Part shown: positions 10,821 through 29,530 of the stretch, piece by piece
Layout of the letters: the number at the start of each line of letters is the position of its first letter
How positions within the stretch are numbered: the stretch's first letter is position 1
IMG/VR virus record: IMGVR_UViG_3300045944_000246
Span: 1 to 34,706 of that record
Source: a virus
Lineage: Duplodnaviria; Caudoviricetes
DNA length: 34,706 nt
Strand: one strand, 5' to 3'
Notes under the pieces: generated by a model
Database searches by the model: none
The model's input: the letters and a program-made list of their open reading frames with translations, nothing else
Told to the model about the DNA's origin: nothing
Position numbers and translations under genes: made by a program

Positions 10821-12521
10821 CTACCAGACCGGCACCCAGCCGGTCGCCCCGCCGCTATCCGTGATCTGGACCCACGTCACCGGTGGCTGCACCGGAATCC
10901 CAGACGCCGCGCCGAGCACCGAGAGCGGCGGCGTCGCGTTCGGCGTGAGGCCGAGCTTCGCCGTCGTCGCCGCGCGGGCCTGGAGCGCCGCCGTATCGAT
11001 CGCGTTCGCCGAAGCCGAAGCCGCCGTCGCCGCATTCGTCGCGTTCGCCACCGCAGACGTGACCTGGCCCCCCGCGATCGTCACCCCCGCTGGGAGCGCG
11101 CCCGCCGTCACGCCCGTCGCCGGGACACTCGCCGCGTTCGTTGCGTTGGTCGCGTTCGTCGCGTTCGTCGCGTTCGTCGCGGCAGGCACCGTCCCCGTGA
11201 CCTGTGCCCCCGGCACGCTCACCCCGGCCGGCACCGTCCCGGCCGGCAGGCCGCTGAGGTTGTTGAGCTGCGCCGCCCGCTGCGCCGAGCCAACCGGACC
11301 CCAGACCTTGCTCCCCGTTACGACCCGTATCCGCGCGTCATCAACCACCCCCGGATCGCGCGCCGCCCGCAACGCATCAATCAGCGTGTTCTCGGCCGGG
11401 AGCTGGACGCCGCGCGAGACGCCCCGCCCCGCCGCTGCGATCGTCGCCGCGTCAATCGGCGGCACGACCTCGACCGTCAGGTCAACCAGCCCCGTCTCCG
11501 CCCGCCAGGTCCGCGAGACCACCCGGCCGAGTCCGGCGTCGCCGCTGGAGCGCGAGCGCGGCAGCACAAACCGGATCATCGTCCCCTCGCGTACCTGCCG
11601 CCGATGCGCATAACTCGATGGTCCGCTTGTGTTGATCATCAGCATCGGTATCCGGCCGGATACCGATCCCGGTTCGAGGACGTCGTCAAACGCCGCTGAG
11701 GGTGGCCCCGGAAACAGCGAGAGCGAGAACAGGCGCAGCGGTTGCCCGCGCCGCGCGACCTCGCGGTCCGCCGCCTCCTGGAGCTCCGAGAGACTCGCCG
11801 TATCGAGCCGGAGCTCGACCTGCCGATCCGTTAAGCGCGGCGAGACGTCAGGGCTCGTCATCACCCGGCCAAAGCGGTCGCGTGCGATCACCTGACCGAC
11901 CCGGTCGCCGCGCTCGGTCGGGCCGAACCCCTGCATCAGTACGTCGCCGTCCTGCGTCAGAATCGGCGGGTAGGCGACCGGCGGCTCGACGCCCCAGGTC
12001 ATCACCGACCCACTCAGCCGCCAGGTCTGACCGGACCGCTGCTCCATATCGCGCAGGACGTCGTCGAGCGTCTGGCCGGAGAGCAGGTACGACGCGACCG
12101 TCGGCGGCGCTTCCATCACCGCACCGAGCGTGATATGGCCGGTCAGCCCGTCGCGGAGCGCGGCCGAGAACGCCTCGCGCACGATCGCCCCGGCGGTGAG
12201 GCCCTTGAGCTCCTGCGTCCGGTAGCAGCGCCGCACCGAGAAGATATGCGAGACGTGAACGACCGGCACGGTGACACCGTCCATGCTCCAGGACGGTGCG
12301 ACCGCGACCCATCCCGGAAAGTCGCCGAGCGACTCGTCGATCATCGTCGCCCACATGCCGACGCCGACCAGCGCCTCGGCCGCGTGACCGCGCGGCACCG
12401 TGAACGACGCCGCGCCGATCGTATCCGTGCGCGGATGCGGCCACGCGACGTCGCCGCTCGGCAGGTTCCAGCGCCCCTCCGCACCGGACGCACTGACGAG
12501 ATGCCACAACAAGTCGCTCAC
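10821..12521 (-). CDS. Minor tail protein (hub/Tal-like N-terminus with a fibre-like C-terminus)
   Basis: Second gene after the tape measure; C-terminal ATN and GV/AG repeats. Confidence 0.75.
   Translation of the reverse strand: MSDLLWHLVSASGAEGRWNLPSGDVAWPHPRTDTIGAASFTVPRGHAAEALVGVGMWATMIDESLGDFPGWVAVAPSWSMDGVTVPVVHVSHIFSVRRCYRTQELKGLTAGAIVREAFSAALRDGLTGHITLGAVMEAPPTVASYLLSGQTLDDVLRDMEQRSGQTWRLSGSVMTWGVEPPVAYPPILTQDGDVLMQGFGPTERGDRVGQVIARDRFGRVMTSPDVSPRLTDRQVELRLDTASLSELQEAADREVARRGQPLRLFSLSLFPGPPSAAFDDVLEPGSVSGRIPMLMINTSGPSSYAHRRQVREGTMIRFVLPRSRSSGDAGLGRVVSRTWRAETGLVDLTVEVVPPIDAATIAAAGRGVSRGVQLPAENTLIDALRAARDPGVVDDARIRVVTGSKVWGPVGSAQRAAQLNNLSGLPAGTVPAGVSVPGAQVTGTVPAATNATNATNATNATNAASVPATGVTAGALPAGVTIAGGQVTSAVANATNAATAASASANAIDTAALQARAATTAKLGLTPNATPPLSVLGAASGIPVQPPVTWVQITDSGGATGWVPVW
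11136..11180 (-). repeat. Five 9-bp tandem units encoding (ATN)5
   Basis: GTTCGTCGC-type units read directly. Confidence 0.85.
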
Positions 12522-12574
12522 GCGGCATACCTCTTAGAACTGAAATACGCTACGCTCGGCCGCAGGAGGCTGAG

Positions 12575-13195
12575 ATGACGTATACCTGTGAACGCTGCGG
12601 CGACTCCTTTATCCGCCTCGGCCGCATCCCTGGCCGGTTCTGCTCGTGGGCGTGCTACACACAGCGGGCGGGAGCATCGCGGCCTGCTGAGGCGAGGTTC
12701 TGGGAGAAGGTGACGAAGGACGGACCATCCCCACCACGCGCCCCCTCCCTCGGACCCTGCTGGCTGTGGACGGGAAGCGCCGACGCGAAAGGCTACGGAC
12801 GCCTGTTTCTCACGCGAGGCCAACCGCCCGCCAAGGCGCACCGCTTTTCCTACACGCTGGCACACGGTCCGATTCCTGACGGGTTGTTCGTCTGCCATCA
12901 CTGCGATGTTCCGCCATGCGTCCGCCCCTCTCACCTGTTCCTCGGAACGGTACGCGACAACTCCGTGGACATGGCGACGAAGGGTCGGTCGATGAAGGGC
13001 GAACGCGGGCGACAGGTGCGTCAACCGCGTGGCTCGCGTCACTGGAACGCCAAACTGACCGAGGATGACGTACGCCGCCTGCGCGCCGAACGAGCGGCGG
13101 GCGTCACGCTGGCCGACCTGCACGCGCGCACGGGATTGTCGAAAGGCGCGCTCTCGATGCTCCTGCGTGGGAAGACCTGGACCCATGTCACCTGA
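12575..13195 (+). CDS. HNH homing endonuclease 1, antisense to the late operon
   Basis: CERC/FCSWAC Zn motif, CWLWTG..GYG, AHR, VCHHCDVPPCVRPSHL..GT..DN, C-terminal HTH; AGGAGG RBS. Confidence 0.93.
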   Translation: MTYTCERCGDSFIRLGRIPGRFCSWACYTQRAGASRPAEARFWEKVTKDGPSPPRAPSLGPCWLWTGSADAKGYGRLFLTRGQPPAKAHRFSYTLAHGPIPDGLFVCHHCDVPPCVRPSHLFLGTVRDNSVDMATKGRSMKGERGRQVRQPRGSRHWNAKLTEDDVRRLRAERAAGVTLADLHARTGLSKGALSMLLRGKTWTHVT

Positions 13196-13200
13196 TCCTT

Positions 13201-14835
13201 TCACGCAGCAAATCTTCGTACATACGCAAACGAGACCGTCGCCGCCAGCGTATTCGTCCAGGTGTTCGGCACGTTCGGCTGCAGGCGGAACGCGCCGACG
13301 CGCGAGACCGGCTTCGGCTCGCCGAGCAACGTCCCACCGGAACTCACCGCGATACTGCGCGGGTCGAGGAACGTCAGCACGACCGCGTGCGCGGAGTCCA
13401 CCCAGACGTCCGTAAAGCTGATCGCGTCGCCGGTCAGCGTGTTCGTGATCAGCCCGTTCAAGCGCCGCATCGTGACCGCCGCGCCGACCGCGACCGTCGG
13501 GAATGACGCCGTCTGAAACACGACCTGCGGCGTCCCCGATACCTCGAGGGTGCCAATCCCACTCAGCGTATTCGACGGTTCGCCGTAGACCGCGAGCTGG
13601 GTCGCGAGGTCGGCGTCGCCGGACGCGCCGGACCCGGCAATATCGCGCCACGTATTCTCGCCGTGCAGCAGGAACTTGAGGAACGTCCGCGGCGGCGCGG
13701 CACCACTGGTCGTGAGCGTCAGGCCGGTGAGCGCGTTCGTCGTGCCGAGCGGCGCCTGGGTGACGAGTCCGACGCCGTCCGCGTCGTTGATGTAGCCCTG
13801 CACGTCCTGGAAATCAAAGAACGCCTGCGTTGCCGTCTGCCGGAACCGAAACGAGGTCGACGGGTAGACCTCGCCCATCCGCGTCAGGAACCATGCGCCG
13901 GTCACGCGCGGGTTCTTCGACAACTGGAACATCGCGCCGATGACTTTCGAGCCGATCGTCGTCGGCGTCGAGCGCCAGATCCACTTATGGTTGCCGATGC
14001 TCGCGTGACCGACGTCCCATCCGGCGGTATCGAAGTTCGCCGCCAGCAGCGCGTTCGAGACGTTCGCGCCCATCAGGATCAGGAAGGTGACCGAGGACGA
14101 CGCCGGAAGGTCGCCGCGAAAGAAAAACCGCGTCGCGGTGGCGTGATTCGGCGTCAGCACAAAGAACGGGATCGAGGTCAGGTCCGGCGCGTAGACGGCG
14201 TAGTTGCTCTCGGCGGTTGCGCTCACGCCGTTCGTCGCGATCGTGCCGTGGTTGATGCCGTCGATCGTGCCGCCGCCGACGACGATCGGATAGTTGCCGA
14301 GGTCGTAGCTCAAGGGGTTCGTCACCGTCACCGCGTAGAGCCGGTGGTCGGTCCCGGTCGCCGTCACCGTTACCTGCGGCAGCGCCGCGACGTTCCCGCC
14401 CGGTGTAATCGGCGAGGTCGTAATACCGGAGACCGTCGTCGTCGAACGCCAGAACGGGTCGAGCATCACGAAGACGCCCTCGAACAGGTCGATCGTCTGT
14501 GGCCCGAACGCCGTGATTAAGATACGCGCCTCGACCGTCTCGCCCTCCCACGACCCTCTGAGCATCCGAATCCCGAGCAGCGGGTTGAACACCTCCATCA
14601 CGTCGGCGGCCCACGCGGAGGTTGCCGCCGCCCCCGGTCCGCGCCGGACGAGAAACGGTACGCGGCGCGGCTCGCCGCTCCAGCCCTCAAACAGCGACGT
14701 ATCCTCCGGCCGCGGCCCGAACGCCGGCGCGGTCGTATACGGCACCGGGGCGGCGACCGGCGTGACCATCCCGTACGCGCCGGCGTCGTTGAGGTTGATC
14801 GCATCAATCGCCGTGTAGGACGGGAGCATGACCAT
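13201..14835 (-). CDS. Distal tail (Dit-like) or minor tail protein with an inserted domain
   Basis: First gene after the tape measure; DPFWRS and GNVAALPQVTV Dit-like segments; 544 aa. Confidence 0.7.
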   Translation of the reverse strand: MVMLPSYTAIDAINLNDAGAYGMVTPVAAPVPYTTAPAFGPRPEDTSLFEGWSGEPRRVPFLVRRGPGAAATSAWAADVMEVFNPLLGIRMLRGSWEGETVEARILITAFGPQTIDLFEGVFVMLDPFWRSTTTVSGITTSPITPGGNVAALPQVTVTATGTDHRLYAVTVTNPLSYDLGNYPIVVGGGTIDGINHGTIATNGVSATAESNYAVYAPDLTSIPFFVLTPNHATATRFFFRGDLPASSSVTFLILMGANVSNALLAANFDTAGWDVGHASIGNHKWIWRSTPTTIGSKVIGAMFQLSKNPRVTGAWFLTRMGEVYPSTSFRFRQTATQAFFDFQDVQGYINDADGVGLVTQAPLGTTNALTGLTLTTSGAAPPRTFLKFLLHGENTWRDIAGSGASGDADLATQLAVYGEPSNTLSGIGTLEVSGTPQVVFQTASFPTVAVGAAVTMRRLNGLITNTLTGDAISFTDVWVDSAHAVVLTFLDPRSIAVSSGGTLLGEPKPVSRVGAFRLQPNVPNTWTNTLAATVSFAYVRRFAA

Positions 14836-19891: not shown

Positions 19892-20308
19892 CTACGGAAC
19901 GGTCGCGCGCAGGATCGTGCCGGTCGGTTTCATCGTCACGGCGCGCACGGCCACATCCGTATACGGGTAATCGTCGTTTGCCTGACTGACGAAGCCTGGA
20001 AACGTCACGCGCCGCTTGAGCGGCACCTTGCCGGCCGGATAGTAGACGAGCGTCCCGCGCGCGCCCGGTATGAACAGGTCTTCAACCGTGAGCGACGTGT
20101 CGTCGAGCACGACCTCAAAGCTGAGTTCGGCATCAGCGAGCGTCACCACGTACACATGGTTCGCGTCGCCGTAGCCGCTTGCGTCGGCGTCGTCGACGGA
20201 GGCGTTCAGACTCAAGTCCCGGCCCTGCGCGCCGATCGTCGAGAACGTCGTGCCGCCGGTCGGCGTCCACTCGATCACCATTAAAAGTCCGGCGGAGAAC
20301 TTCGCCAT
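19892..20308 (-). CDS. Major tail (tube) protein, copy B
   Basis: 138 aa; ...LVYYPAG...VTFPGFV... tube-like pattern; precedes the chaperone. Confidence 0.82.
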   Translation of the reverse strand: MAKFSAGLLMVIEWTPTGGTTFSTIGAQGRDLSLNASVDDADASGYGDANHVYVVTLADAELSFEVVLDDTSLTVEDLFIPGARGTLVYYPAGKVPLKRRVTFPGFVSQANDDYPYTDVAVRAVTMKPTGTILRATVP

Positions 20309-20321
20309 CGCTCATCCCTCC

Positions 20322-20738
20322 TTACGGGTTGACGCCGCGCACGATCGTGCCGGTTGGCTTCATCGTGATCGCGCGGATCGCGACATCGGTATAGGGGAAA
20401 TCGTCGTTTGCCTGACTGACGAAGCCTGGAAACGTCACCTTGCGTTTGCCCGCCGTGACCCCGGCCGGCGAGAAGATCAGCGTGCCGCGTGCGCCGGGGA
20501 TAAACAGATCCTCGACGGTGAGCGTCGTGTCGTCGAGGAGGAGCTCAAAACTGAGCTCGGCATCCGCCAGCGTCACCACGTAGACGTGATTGGCGTCGCC
20601 GTAGCCGGAGGCGTCCGCGTCGTCAACGCTCGCGTTCAAGCTGAGGTCGCGGCCCTGCGCGCCGATCGTCGTGACGACCGTCGAACCAGACGGCGTCCAG
20701 GAGATCACCATTGTCAAGCCAGCAGAGAATTTCGCCAC
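20322..20738 (-). CDS. Major tail (tube) protein, copy A
   Basis: 138 aa; 113/138 identical to copy B by manual count; GAGGAGGT RBS, GTG start. Confidence 0.82.
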   Translation of the reverse strand: MAKFSAGLTMVISWTPSGSTVVTTIGAQGRDLSLNASVDDADASGYGDANHVYVVTLADAELSFELLLDDTTLTVEDLFIPGARGTLIFSPAGVTAGKRKVTFPGFVSQANDDFPYTDVAIRAITMKPTGTIVRGVNP

Positions 20739-20775
20739 CGTATGACCTCCTCACAGAAGTAGCATGGCTATTATC

Positions 20776-20786
20776 TGTGGTATACT
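20776..20786 (+). promoter_or_regulatory. Extended -10 promoter for HNH 2 (TGTGGTATACT)
   Basis: TGnTATACT followed by a GGGAGG RBS and ATG 20805. Confidence 0.65.
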
Positions 20787-20804
20787 GCCGCGGGAGGGCC
20801 CCGC

Positions 20805-21386
20805 ATGACATCCCACATCTGCCTGGTCTGCGGCACGCCGTTCGAACGACCGGCGTGGCAGTCGCCGCGGTTTTGTTCTCGTACCTGCGCCGGCGTTGTG
20901 CGGCGCGGACGGCCACCATATGAGCGGCCATTCACGGTGGACGGCTTCTGGGCGAAGGTTGATCGCGGTGCCGGCACCGATGCCTGCTGGACGTGGCGGG
21001 GAAAGCGAAACCGCCATGGCTATGGTGTGCTTCAGGCAGCACGCAAACCGCTGCGCGCTCACCGGGTCGCGTATGAGTTGGCGCATGGCTCCATCCCGGA
21101 CGGCGTCTGGGTCTTGCATCACTGCGACAATCCGCCGTGTGTGCGACCCGACCATCTCTTCCTCGGCCGGCAGGCTGAGAACATGGCCGATGCCGCCCGC
21201 AAGAACCGGGCGGAGTACGGCACACGCCGCCACAGTGCCGTCCTGACCGATGACGCCGTGCGCGTCATCCGCTCCCGCTATGCTGCCGGAGGCGTCACCC
21301 AGGCAACCCTTGCCCGTGAGTGGCATGTCTCTCAAAGCCTCATCAACCGCGTCATTCTCCACACCAAGTGGCGGCATGTTCTCTAG
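20805..21386 (+). CDS. HNH homing endonuclease 2, antisense to the late operon
   Basis: CLVC/FCSRTC, CWTWRG..GYG, AHR, VLHHCDNPPCVRPDHL..EN, C-terminal HTH. Confidence 0.93.
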   Translation: MTSHICLVCGTPFERPAWQSPRFCSRTCAGVVRRGRPPYERPFTVDGFWAKVDRGAGTDACWTWRGKRNRHGYGVLQAARKPLRAHRVAYELAHGSIPDGVWVLHHCDNPPCVRPDHLFLGRQAENMADAARKNRAEYGTRRHSAVLTDDAVRVIRSRYAAGGVTQATLAREWHVSQSLINRVILHTKWRHVL

Positions 21387-26255: not shown

Positions 26256-27305
26256 TCACTCGCTCATACACGACGCCCCCAATTCCACCGCCATGTCGTG
26301 CATCGCCTGGAGGCGTTTGAGGTCGGCGGCGGCATTACGCGCCCCGGCCTTCGGAACCAACTCCGGCAGGTCGATGCCGAGTTCGCCCTGCAGGTGGGCG
26401 CGGTGGGCCAGGAACAACTCGCGCAGGCCCTCGGCGTACAGGTCGGGCCCCTTCGCCGCGTCCCCGACACCCTCGGATGTGGCGTGACCGTTCAGGTGGC
26501 GCTGCGCGGTGGCGCGGGCGGCGTCCGAGAGGTCGGCCTGCGGCAGCCGGGCGAGCGCATTGCGCAGGTGGGGGAGGTCAATGCCGCCGCCCTGGCCGTG
26601 GTGGGGGAGTTTGCGCAGACTGCGGGGCGTGGTTTTCCCGTCCGCGTCCTTCTCGCCACCGGGCAGGACGACGGCGAAGGCGTTATCCGGCAGGTCGTTG
26701 ATAAAGGCCGCGGTCCAGGTCGCGAGCTCGACCCAGACATGCACGCCGCGCTCGGCCGGACAGTTCGCGTCGCCGATGTCGAGGTCGTAGGCCACGCCGC
26801 ACGCCTCGCACACCTCCGGGGGCGCGTCGACGACGTGCTTGACCGCGGCGGTGGCGGTGTTGGGCGAGGCGCCCTTCAGCACGGGCGACACCTCGACCCA
26901 CTCGACCGCATTGATCACGCGCACCGACTTGCCGTCGCGCTCCTCCATCTTCCAGTCGGTTGCGTAGAAGCCGACCGACCACTCTTTCACCCGGCCGCGC
27001 GCGACCATCTTGAAGGCGTAGGCACCTGGCTCGGTGTCCAGGTCAAACTGCATCGTTGCCAGCAACCGCCGCCGGTCCTCACGCGCCGCCGTGACGCCGC
27101 CGACGATCGTGCGCGGGTCGTGCATCCACGCCACCGCCGGCAACGACGCCTTGATGCTCTGGTCGAAGGCACCAGAGGCCAGCACCTCCTGGTCGTGGTC
27201 GACGACCTCCAGCGAGTTGACGTAGGCGGTGACAATGCCCTCGGCCTCGGAGATCGCCTTGATCTCAATCGGACTCGTCTTGCGGATCAGCGTTGGGAGC
27301 GTCAT
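26256..27305 (-). CDS. HK97-type prohead protease with an extra C-terminal domain
   Basis: VDHDQE..GAF, WMHD, WSVGF, EVSPVLKGA. Confidence 0.9.
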   Translation of the reverse strand: MTLPTLIRKTSPIEIKAISEAEGIVTAYVNSLEVVDHDQEVLASGAFDQSIKASLPAVAWMHDPRTIVGGVTAAREDRRRLLATMQFDLDTEPGAYAFKMVARGRVKEWSVGFYATDWKMEERDGKSVRVINAVEWVEVSPVLKGASPNTATAAVKHVVDAPPEVCEACGVAYDLDIGDANCPAERGVHVWVELATWTAAFINDLPDNAFAVVLPGGEKDADGKTTPRSLRKLPHHGQGGGIDLPHLRNALARLPQADLSDAARATAQRHLNGHATSEGVGDAAKGPDLYAEGLRELFLAHRAHLQGELGIDLPELVPKAGARNAAADLKRLQAMHDMAVELGASCMSE

Positions 27306-29530
27306 CGCTTCGCCTCCGCGAAGATTTCAGCGAGGTACGCCGGGAGTGGCCCAGAACTCTCTTCGAGCAGGTCGACCTCGAGATCGCCGTTGGGGAACCG
27401 GAGCGTGAGACGGCCCTTCGTCGCGACGCGGCGGACGGTGGCGCAGCGGCAGGCGGGATGGGCCGGCGCGTGCATCTGCCCGGATGGGAACATCTGCGTG
27501 TCGGGAATCCAGCCCTGGGCCGCGTTGTCGCGGCAGTGGGCGGAGACGCGGTCGTCGTTCACCGTCACCCACGACTTCTCGATATCGATGCCCGAGCCGC
27601 GCAATTCGGCGGCAACGGCGCTCTTGCCCACCTCGTAGGCCGTGCCGATCTCATGCACCGCGATCAGCTCGGCCCGGTTGCGCAGGTGCTCCTGGGTGGC
27701 ACGGCCGGCGAAGCCGTCGAAAGCGGCGGTGATGGCGCGGGCCGTGCGCCCGTAGTCCCACCCCGAAGCTGAGGCATCGGCGAGCAGGGTACGCAAGCGG
27801 TCGCGGGTGGTTTGCTGGATACCGGCGACGCGGTCGGCGGCGTAGTTCGCGAGGAACCCGACCACGGCCGGCGTGGTGCGGCCGAAGGCGGGCAGCGCGG
27901 CGGTGAGACCGCGGCCCGCATCCGTCCAGCCACGCTCAAGGGCGGCGGGGGCCGCATCGGTAAGCGCCTGGCTGTAGAGCGCCTCGACCTCGGCCTGGGC
28001 GAGCCGGAGGAGTTCTTCCCACGAGCTTTCGGTGAGGGCATCGCGGCGGGAGCGCAAATGCCGGAGGAACGCCTCGCCCTCCGCCGTAAACGCCGCGGCC
28101 AACTGGCGCTGCAGGTCCTCGACCGCGGCGGCGAGTGCCGTAGGTATCGTCCGGCTATCATCGGCCGCGAACGCGCGATAGGGCGCGCGTGAGGCCCCGG
28201 CGACGGATTCCACCACCGCACCGGTGTCCGTACCCTCAGCGGCCTCTGGTGGCGATTGCGGGGCATTCGGGAGCGAGGGCGGCGTGGCACTGGCGCCGAG
28301 CGGCGTCCCCTCCGCCGACACCAGCAGCACGCCGGTTGCGAGGTAGTAGACGTCGCCCGCGTCACCGCCGAGCGGGTCCATCCCCAGGGCATCGCGCGCC
28401 TCGTCGCGGGAGATGAGACCGGCCTTGAACTGCTCGACCACGCGCGTCGACTTCGCGTCTTCGTTCTCGCCGAGCGCCTTCACCTCGGAGTAGTCCCACT
28501 CGAGTGTGCCGTCGCCCTGCAGCTCGTCGTAGTCGGCGGCGAACATGCGCGACAGCGCACCGATGATGCGGCGGTTGCGCGGCAAGAGCGTCTCTTCCCA
28601 GAACGACTGCCGCGCCTCGGCATAGTTGGCGTAGGTGGAGTGGGCGAGGCCGACGGAGGCGCCCACGAGCACGGGTGGCACGCCGAACACCTCGCAGACC
28701 TCGGCCTCGTTCGGCATGATGATGTCTTTGATCGCGAGGTCTTTGAGGTCGGACGCCACCTTCTGGTAGTCGGCGTCTTCGTCGAGCACCGGGATGCGGT
28801 GCCAGTTGCGCGCACCGCTGAAGCGACTCATGAACGACGAGCGGATGCGGTCGGCTTCGTCCTGGGAGGCGAGCTTGCGCTTCACCTTGAGCAGGCCGGA
28901 GGGGATGGCGGCGTTCTGAAAGAAAGCGGCGACGAACTCGGTCAGCGACTTCGTCACGAGCAGTGAGCGCGCCAGGACGTGGATGCGGCTGAGGCCGTGG
29001 TAGTCGTCGGCGGGGTTGAACTCTTTGACGACTCCGATGTCGGCCGCCGGGATGACGTACTCCTGGCCGTTGACGGTATAGACGTACGCCTGCGGTCCCA
29101 TCGCGCCGGGGACGACCTCAAGGCGTTCGGGGCGCAGGACGAGCCACGCCACCACCTGGCCGGCCTGCCCACGCGCCTTGTAGACGTAGGTAATGCCAGC
29201 GATGTCGAGGTAGATGTTGACCGCTTCGAGGAACTCGAACTGATCCATCCACGGGTTTGGCCGGCGCAGGGTCTCGGCAAGGGTGCCGGTGGTGACTTCG
29301 TCGCCGAGGGTATCGCGGACTACGAGGCGGGCCTCAGCGGCGCTCGTTGCCTTCTCCTGAACGCAGGCATAGACGAGTGGGAGGCGGCCGTAGGCTTCGC
29401 GGGCGAAGGCTTCGAGGTTATCGGCGGGCGATTCGGGCAGGCCGGCGGTGCCGGCGCCGAGCAGGATCGAGGCGACGACCTCAGACCCAGACGATGCGGT
29501 GCGGCGGAAGGGCCAGAACGGGACGGCCAT
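27302..29530 (-). CDS. Portal protein fused to a MuF-like minor head domain
   Basis: VYACV, RPNPWM, FFQNAAIPSG, FGVPPVLVG, SRDEARDALG, then RAELIAVHE...KSW...DDRV...PAHPACRC. Confidence 0.9.
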   Translation of the reverse strand: MAVPFWPFRRTASSGSEVVASILLGAGTAGLPESPADNLEAFAREAYGRLPLVYACVQEKATSAAEARLVVRDTLGDEVTTGTLAETLRRPNPWMDQFEFLEAVNIYLDIAGITYVYKARGQAGQVVAWLVLRPERLEVVPGAMGPQAYVYTVNGQEYVIPAADIGVVKEFNPADDYHGLSRIHVLARSLLVTKSLTEFVAAFFQNAAIPSGLLKVKRKLASQDEADRIRSSFMSRFSGARNWHRIPVLDEDADYQKVASDLKDLAIKDIIMPNEAEVCEVFGVPPVLVGASVGLAHSTYANYAEARQSFWEETLLPRNRRIIGALSRMFAADYDELQGDGTLEWDYSEVKALGENEDAKSTRVVEQFKAGLISRDEARDALGMDPLGGDAGDVYYLATGVLLVSAEGTPLGASATPPSLPNAPQSPPEAAEGTDTGAVVESVAGASRAPYRAFAADDSRTIPTALAAAVEDLQRQLAAAFTAEGEAFLRHLRSRRDALTESSWEELLRLAQAEVEALYSQALTDAAPAALERGWTDAGRGLTAALPAFGRTTPAVVGFLANYAADRVAGIQQTTRDRLRTLLADASASGWDYGRTARAITAAFDGFAGRATQEHLRNRAELIAVHEIGTAYEVGKSAVAAELRGSGIDIEKSWVTVNDDRVSAHCRDNAAQGWIPDTQMFPSGQMHAPAHPACRCATVRRVATKGRLTLRFPNGDLEVDLLEESSGPLPAYLAEIFAEAKR

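Follow-up and report, generated by a model that had tools for sequence, protein, structure and literature searches.

An open operon-strand frame opposite a backward HNH endonuclease gene that may carry ribosomes through a phage tail operon

Results

Two HNH genes run against the tail operon

The window, a stretch of 34,706 nucleotides, is a whole virus record found in soil metagenome runs. Pfam and PHROG searches identified integrase, terminase, portal, protease, capsid, major tail, and tape measure genes, and the phage is likely a temperate siphophage. Its structural genes occupy the minus strand, and two HNH genes, 39% identical to each other, lie on the plus strand within the tail operon. 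The features discussed below are as follows.

10821..12521, minus strand: downstream tail gene, 566 aa; weak PHROG minor tail match (E = 5e-4)
12518..13204, minus strand: bridge ORF, same-register antisense to HNH 1; 228 aa from GTG 13204, 222 from ATG 13186
12518..12535, minus strand: second gene-end copy (KRYAA-stop), in the bridge frame; likely the original end
12564..12569, plus strand: AGGAGG ribosome site of HNH 1, from the sequence; duplex energy -10.3
12575..13195, plus strand: HNH 1, free-standing HNH endonuclease gene, 206 aa (Pfam HNH_3, PHROG)
13196..13200, minus strand: AAGGA, candidate ribosome site for ATG 13186, from the sequence; duplex energy -5.4
13201..13218, minus strand: present end of the upstream gene (RRFAA-stop), ending in GTGA; likely a regenerated copy
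13201..14835, minus strand: upstream gene for a distal tail (Dit)-type protein; it immediately follows the tape measure gene
20751..21377, minus strand: bridge ORF 2, 208 aa; ATG 5 nt past the upstream TAG
20805..21386, plus strand: HNH 2, second backward HNH (Pfam), also without TTA, CTA, or TCA

HNH 1 itself belongs to a known kind of gene and is unremarkable within it. It matched Pfam HNH_3 (E = 4e-12, over the curated cut-off) and the PHROG HNH endonuclease family (E = 5e-27), and no solved structure was matched by its sequence. It lies outside any intron or intein, between host genes, as free-standing endonuclease genes do, and is likely, by its sequence, a selfish DNA-cutting gene. None of its 29 Leu and TCN-Ser codons is TTA, CTA, or TCA. 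The assembly across HNH 1 holds up: with 0 differences, a contig from another run crosses the downstream junction (X10, 12447-12938), and two more cross the upstream one (X12, 12666-13220; X11, 13166-13318).

HNH 1 is an antisense gene between two same-strand, functionally linked genes, which is the arrangement of a noncontiguous operon. The upstream protein belongs to a family in which 6 of 29 members match SPP1_Dit in Pfam, and its predicted structure (pLDDT 90.8) found matches in SPP1 Dit and in the tail tip of Bxb1. The upstream gene ends at the same place as in its 56 relatives, and both flanks of HNH 1 are whole ORFs. From its position, we infer that the downstream gene encodes the baseplate hub; no relatives of its protein were found in viral contigs. 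The C-terminal third of this protein carries NAT/PA low-complexity repeats. Elsewhere among the structural genes, 19892-20308 and 20322-20738 encode tandem 138-aa major-tail-type paralogues with nearly identical N-termini, and 27302-29530 encodes a portal protein fused to a Mu F-like head morphogenesis domain. Three RNA runs contain small shares of the window (0.07-0.17), which do not count as evidence.

The strand opposite HNH 1 is open from gene to gene

In the bridge frame, no stop occurs from the stop codon of the upstream tail gene to the start of the downstream gene. An earlier sequence-only reading of this DNA had described a minus-strand frame here, and direct inspection of the sequence agreed with its account of both ends. 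An ATG at 13186-13184 lies 14 nt past the upstream TGA (13203-13201) and behind AAGGA (13200-13196); 222 codons follow, and the frame closes in TGA at 12520-12518, within the GTGA whose GTG at 12521 starts the downstream gene. The ATG is the reverse complement of CAT, the codon for His204 in the WTHV end of HNH 1, and the two frames are in the same register. The frame had also been said to cover nearly all of the HNH gene and its promoter; a scan of 12200-13500 found no sigma-70-type promoter. The same scan found no terminator-like site. The downstream gene has its own ribosome site, with a duplex energy of -7.1.

ATG 13186 was rejected as the first start of the frame. An in-frame GTG at 13204, which the sequence-only reading had missed, comes earlier and overlaps the upstream TGA as GTGA; thus, the bridge frame has a GTGA overlap at both ends. 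The frame is open further upstream still, inside the upstream gene, as an ORF of 377 aa (13651..12518), and stops are absent from it for 618 nt past the end of HNH 1. Bridge ORF 2 is open in a register identical to that of the first (same-register antisense to HNH 2). Its TGA lies 12 nt ahead of the major tail gene start at 20738 and abuts a GGAGG site, and the ribosome site of the major tail gene behind HNH 2 has a duplex energy of -12.9.

The caution that same-register antisense frames are often open at high GC proved apt for this phage. When its own genes were cut into 200-codon windows, the same-register antisense frame was open in 11 of 27, and a model fitted on forward HNHs gave P(open) = 0.12 for HNH 1 and 0.14 for HNH 2. 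The chance of one open frame at 68% GC is about 0.12-0.4; a single locus is therefore weak, and the population test carries the claim. The bridge could be a shadow ORF, a chance locus opened by 68% GC, with its start supplied by the WxH motif of the HNH gene and its stop by a relic gene end, which would place a stop in one frame out of three. Open frames in 66 of 204 windows of backward-HNH flank genes, and in 13 of the 26 forward HNHs with GC3 over 0.8, speak for this explanation, as does the codon-model score of the bridge (-37), which is that of non-coding sequence.

Open frames are enriched opposite backward HNH genes

The cross-genome sample comprised 565 loci plus two window stretches, with 573 HNH-like segments; five loci of the same phage were left out. 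After 115 incomplete segments, 84 without a usable start, and 14 partial ones were dropped, 360 were kept, forming 314 clusters at 70% identity. These fell into 50 backward HNHs (48 plus the two window genes), 138 forward HNHs, and 126 with mixed or missing flanks, which stayed outside the main test. Flank genes and starts were taken from a gene caller trained on the data themselves; it found the family-confirmed structural genes of the window, placed them on their correct strand, and left the bridge uncalled. Among the 96 flanks of the 48 backward loci, 28 had a PHROG match on the strand assigned by the caller, 17 to virion or lysis families, and 68 had no match. Contigs with two HNH motif matches ∼1.2 kb apart occurred in the sample as L308/L309 and L329/L330.

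The same-register opposite frame was open in 22 of 48 backward HNHs versus 23 of 138 forward HNHs (Fisher p = 1.4e-4). The sequence-only reading had proposed comparing antisense with co-oriented HNHs at matched GC, and the predicted enrichment was found: the GC3-stratified odds ratio was 11.9 (p = 8e-7), and a logistic model expected 6.4 open backward loci. By GC3 bin, the open fractions of backward versus forward HNHs were 2/13 vs 0/27, 8/19 vs 2/31, 2/3 vs 3/27, 2/5 vs 5/27, and 8/8 vs 13/26. Taken separately, the loci found by protein (10/26 backward vs 2/47 forward) and those found by DNA pattern (12/22 vs 21/91) each gave more open backward loci, and the other two antisense frames were open in 0 of 48 backward HNHs. 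Across the relatives, as a statistical tendency, backward HNHs avoid exactly the three codons (TTA, CTA, TCA) that are stops on the operon strand. In a first pass on 44 backward and 117 forward genes, CTA (OR 0.41) and TCA (OR 0.63) were depleted and six other A-ending codons were not (OR 0.79-1.29, none significant); the first-pass codon model ran too low for open forward genes, with 20 seen and 14.1 expected.

The position of the stop was biased by frame as well. At 22 of 48 loci, the first stop past the HNH gene fell between -11 and +5 nt relative to the downstream start, as against 2 and 2 in the other frames, and any stop near the downstream start was found 25 times in the bridge frame versus 7 and 6 times in the others (p = 1.2e-4); the downstream gene lies in the bridge's own frame at only 6 of 48 loci. 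Complete bridges were present at 12 of 50 loci, both window HNHs included, versus 0 and 0 in the other frames. The start side was enriched too (32 of 48, vs 8 and 12), but we set this aside as evidence because the WxH motif creates the start: His occurs so often within the last 8 HNH codons (32/50 backward and 65/138 forward) that a start there is largely automatic. A bias for CAT over CAC (11/15 vs 28/69, p = 0.025) is mildly informative.

In the HNH class, the frequency of open frames is not explained by GC content and codon use irrespective of context. A shadow ORF leaves unexplained the 22 open loci where 6.4 were expected, the restriction of the depletion to particular codons, the 22/2/2 skew of the stop position towards one frame, and the presence in one genome of two complete bridges whose P(open) was 0.12 and 0.14; we therefore consider chance an unlikely account of the bridge. 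Selection on the open operon-strand frame in backward HNHs is well supported, and the frame was probably selected many times over. About 37% of backward loci would carry a selected frame, calculated as (22-6.4)/(48-6.4); if so, an open frame with a P of 0.12 is quite likely a selected one, and more so where its ends are coupled. The open, coupled cases are scattered on a poorly resolved tree, with 13 changes for 15 rows, and phylogenetically independent pairs numbered 3 with support.

The bridge is not required, since 26 of 48 backward HNHs are shut by internal stops and, opposite T4 segD, no ORF on the operon strand exceeds 48 aa. Three loci counted as shut (L327, L084, and L006) have a single antisense stop within 8 codons of one of the two HNH ends and, from their sequences, are probably near-complete bridges. 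Cultured phages gave 432 matching records; among the five examined, four HNH genes were co-oriented with their neighbors and one had a mixed context, and none had a bridge.

The open frame, rather than its product, appears selected

The bridge protein matched no Pfam or PHROG family, and 0 of 1703 candidates scored as homologues. Shared four-fold third bases stood at 1.07-1.18 times expectation in open backward HNHs versus 1.12-1.13 in forward HNHs, in a comparison among relatives less than 70% identical that registers deep conservation only. The bridge thus lacks what would mark an overprinted functional protein, namely a conserved product that constrains third positions. With no homologue and no third-base conservation, the open frame and not the product appears to be selected, and any protein made from the bridge is probably junk. 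Plausible starts and a length of 222-228 aa would suit a product that is functional in its own right, such as an HNH inhibitor or a virion part, yet the missing family and homologues, the negative codon score, and the lack of excess third-base conservation make this very improbable.

The claim that the selfish gene keeps ribosomes on the late mRNA is borne out in one part, selection for the open operon-strand frame, by the enrichment over forward HNHs. This selection may have acted on the phage after the insertion instead of reflecting a design of the selfish gene. Two further comparisons did not separate coupling, polarity, mRNA protection, and silencing of the HNH as the benefit: ribosome sites of coupled loci were not weaker (p = 0.21 and 0.83), and C-over-G skew was alike whether loci were open or shut (p = 0.50; 0.10 in the best window). 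It is also conceivable that the frame is translated and that the main gain is silencing of the nuclease, with a ribosome-coupled late RNA polymerase winning collisions with HNH transcription. Ribosome coupling strengthens transcriptional interference, and engineered constructs reached 38-fold repression via collisions with ribosome-RNAP coupling (10.1101/2020.09.23.310730); similarly, passages of PMC11034616 describe a noncontiguous operon of phage 80alpha that shuts off its antisense gene during replication. That ribosome-site strength does not track coupling fits silencing as well. Silencing, however, has no need of a stop at the downstream start, which 22 of 48 loci have. We regard it as an unlikely main gain, about on a par with a chance frame, though it can coexist with the explanation we prefer, in which ribosomes are handed on to the next tail gene.

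The bridge likely ends in a duplicate of the upstream gene's end

The last codons of the bridge resemble those of the upstream gene. The two gene ends are alike at 12 of 18 nt, and VRRFAA-stop against SKRYAA-stop scored 16 (p = 0.0017) in a six-residue comparison against cross-locus pairs; an R-Y/F-x-x end occurs in many of the upstream protein's 56 relatives. A profile built from the final 70 residues of Dit family members missed the bridge end (E = 0.18), the match being confined to the last 4-5 residues. Judging from these sequences, the bridge end is likely a duplicate of the upstream gene's end. The copy behind HNH 1 (12518..12535) holds the AAGAGGT ribosome site and the GTGA start of the downstream gene, and because that ribosome site lies in it, we infer that this copy would be the old gene end. 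Such a duplication, which the sequence-only reading had missed, would account for the stop on the downstream GTGA.

The element is flanked by two copies of the target's 3′ end that differ in spelling, as with the WHO elements discussed below, and three more loci are alike. The four strongest gene-end duplicates among the 50 loci all lie in the bridge frame, and at all four the frame is open and ends at the downstream start: HNH 1 and three loci in other phages, given here with their bridges, each carrying a recoded duplicate gene end, and their gene-end pairs, each followed by a stop.

L109, 2914-3666, minus strand: CRHETK/CRHEVK; confirmed on recheck with an ORF tool
L005, 2956-3531, minus strand: AHAGDY/SYAGDY
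L213, 2147-3399, minus strand: ASYQAA/ASSQAA

The fifth-ranked duplicate, L086, is a Lys-rich match in another frame at a shut locus, and HNH 2 showed no sign of a duplicated gene end in the six-residue comparison.

Gene-end remnants in the bridge frame at these four clearest cases would also be expected of a historical relic, in which an HNH gene first sat in frame inside a read-through host gene whose end was rebuilt later, the open frame decaying without function. The sharing of the bridge frame by the upstream gene at L005 and L072 and the coupled end kept by 9 of the 26 shut loci point the same way. However, at the HNH 1 locus, L109, and L213, the upstream gene and the bridge occupy different frames; with three of the four duplicate loci off-frame, re-initiation is needed and read-through does not suffice. 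HNH 1 moreover has recent-looking intact signals and the full avoidance of TTA, CTA, and TCA noted above. We hold a relic to be less probable still than a chance frame or nuclease silencing.

Searches for an empty-site allele found none: the upstream gene returned the same phage alone, the downstream gene returned nothing, and no joint skipping HNH 1 appeared in four DNA runs. A locus scan for the empty site was defeated by the variability of the Dit alignment. The X13 contigs come from a diverged relative of both flanking tail genes, with 13-27 differences per piece (12156-12300, 13255-13427, and 13535-13685); no piece spans the junction, and this relative might carry an empty allele.

Discussion

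We propose, with a probability of roughly 0.6, that the strand opposite a backward HNH gene is kept open by selection and that ribosomes, after re-initiating, traverse the insert and are passed to the tail gene that follows. At the HNH 1 locus, the HNH gene would have entered the last codons of the distal tail gene; a recoded copy of the end would now complete that gene, with the old end, its downstream ribosome site, and its GTGA overlap left behind the insert. Both end copies close in GTGA, and the spacing between them brings the first GTG and the second TGA into register with the HNH antisense frame. Avoidance of the three codons that are operon-strand stops would then keep that frame passable. 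Rho-dependent polarity and coupling through overlaps are established knowledge. Filler translation would preserve translational coupling, and it would protect a stretch of ∼700 nt in the late mRNA against decay and Rho-type termination.

The proposed bridge has relatives among known systems. The T4 homing endonuclease genes (mob, seg) are co-oriented except segD, inserts must spare the expression of neighbors, and co-oriented endonuclease genes overlap those neighbors in coupling-like ways, according to passages of PMC2988022, which treat coupling of the endonuclease itself and not a bridge. Like HNH 1, such free-standing genes are inserted between essential genes; segD is antisense but terminator-flanked, and our ORF analysis showed no bridging frame opposite it. 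Noncontiguous operons, also found in phage 80alpha, nest an antisense gene between co-transcribed genes and were possibly born by insertion (PMC11034616). The HNH 1 locus likewise has an antisense gene nested among same-strand genes. In that paper, the nested stretch is treated as untranslated and called intriguing, and runaway transcription in Gram-positive hosts is invoked; at the HNH 1 locus, by contrast, it is an open, coupled frame.

WHO elements at yeast FBA1 are homing elements that replace the 3′ end of the target gene on integration (PMC7282813). They are eukaryotic, intein-related, and without an operon, whereas at HNH 1 the duplication would cover only ∼6 codons, with the old end now forming the tail of the bridge. 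In integrons, ORF-11 and the short ORFs of attC sites relay ribosomes by termination and re-initiation, their translation and not their product being what counts (PMC8876359). By analogy, the bridge would be an ORF of this sort. ORF-11 and the attC ORFs have 11-18 codons and lie in recombination sites, whereas the bridge has more than 200, is overprinted on a working opposite-strand gene, and constrains its codon choice. The bridge is thus best seen, by these analogies, as a variant of relay ORFs and noncontiguous operons. No passage in PMC10055350 or PMC12724721 concerns antisense orientation, PMC6506933 proved off the subject, and searches of largely open-access literature returned no description of a bridging frame, in keeping with the earlier remark that this design was not known to have been described.

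We give somewhat better than even odds to a general statement: backward inserts in phage operons are selected on their non-coding strand, with TTA, CTA, and TCA purged and the register adjusted, leaving a junk ORF on which ribosomes pass from the rebuilt end of one host gene to the old end ahead of the next. If true, this would be a general, natural non-polar cassette, evolved repeatedly, and would show how mobile genes enter essential late operons backward at low cost. It would answer how noncontiguous operons escape polarity, offering a testable solution to the puzzle, raised in PMC11034616, of transcription crossing long untranslated antisense stretches. A protein-less job on the other strand could dictate a gene's synonymous codon choice, and there would be a standing supply of translated antisense frames for new overprinted genes. 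Some "shadow ORFs" discarded by annotators would then be real cis elements, which matters for the recoding of phage genomes.

Three cultured phages (L571, L574, and L575) carry co-oriented relatives of this HNH among recombination or replication genes, where the HNH gene overlaps its neighbors by 1-4 nt on one side or on both; given such overlaps, the HNH gene itself would be the relay there.
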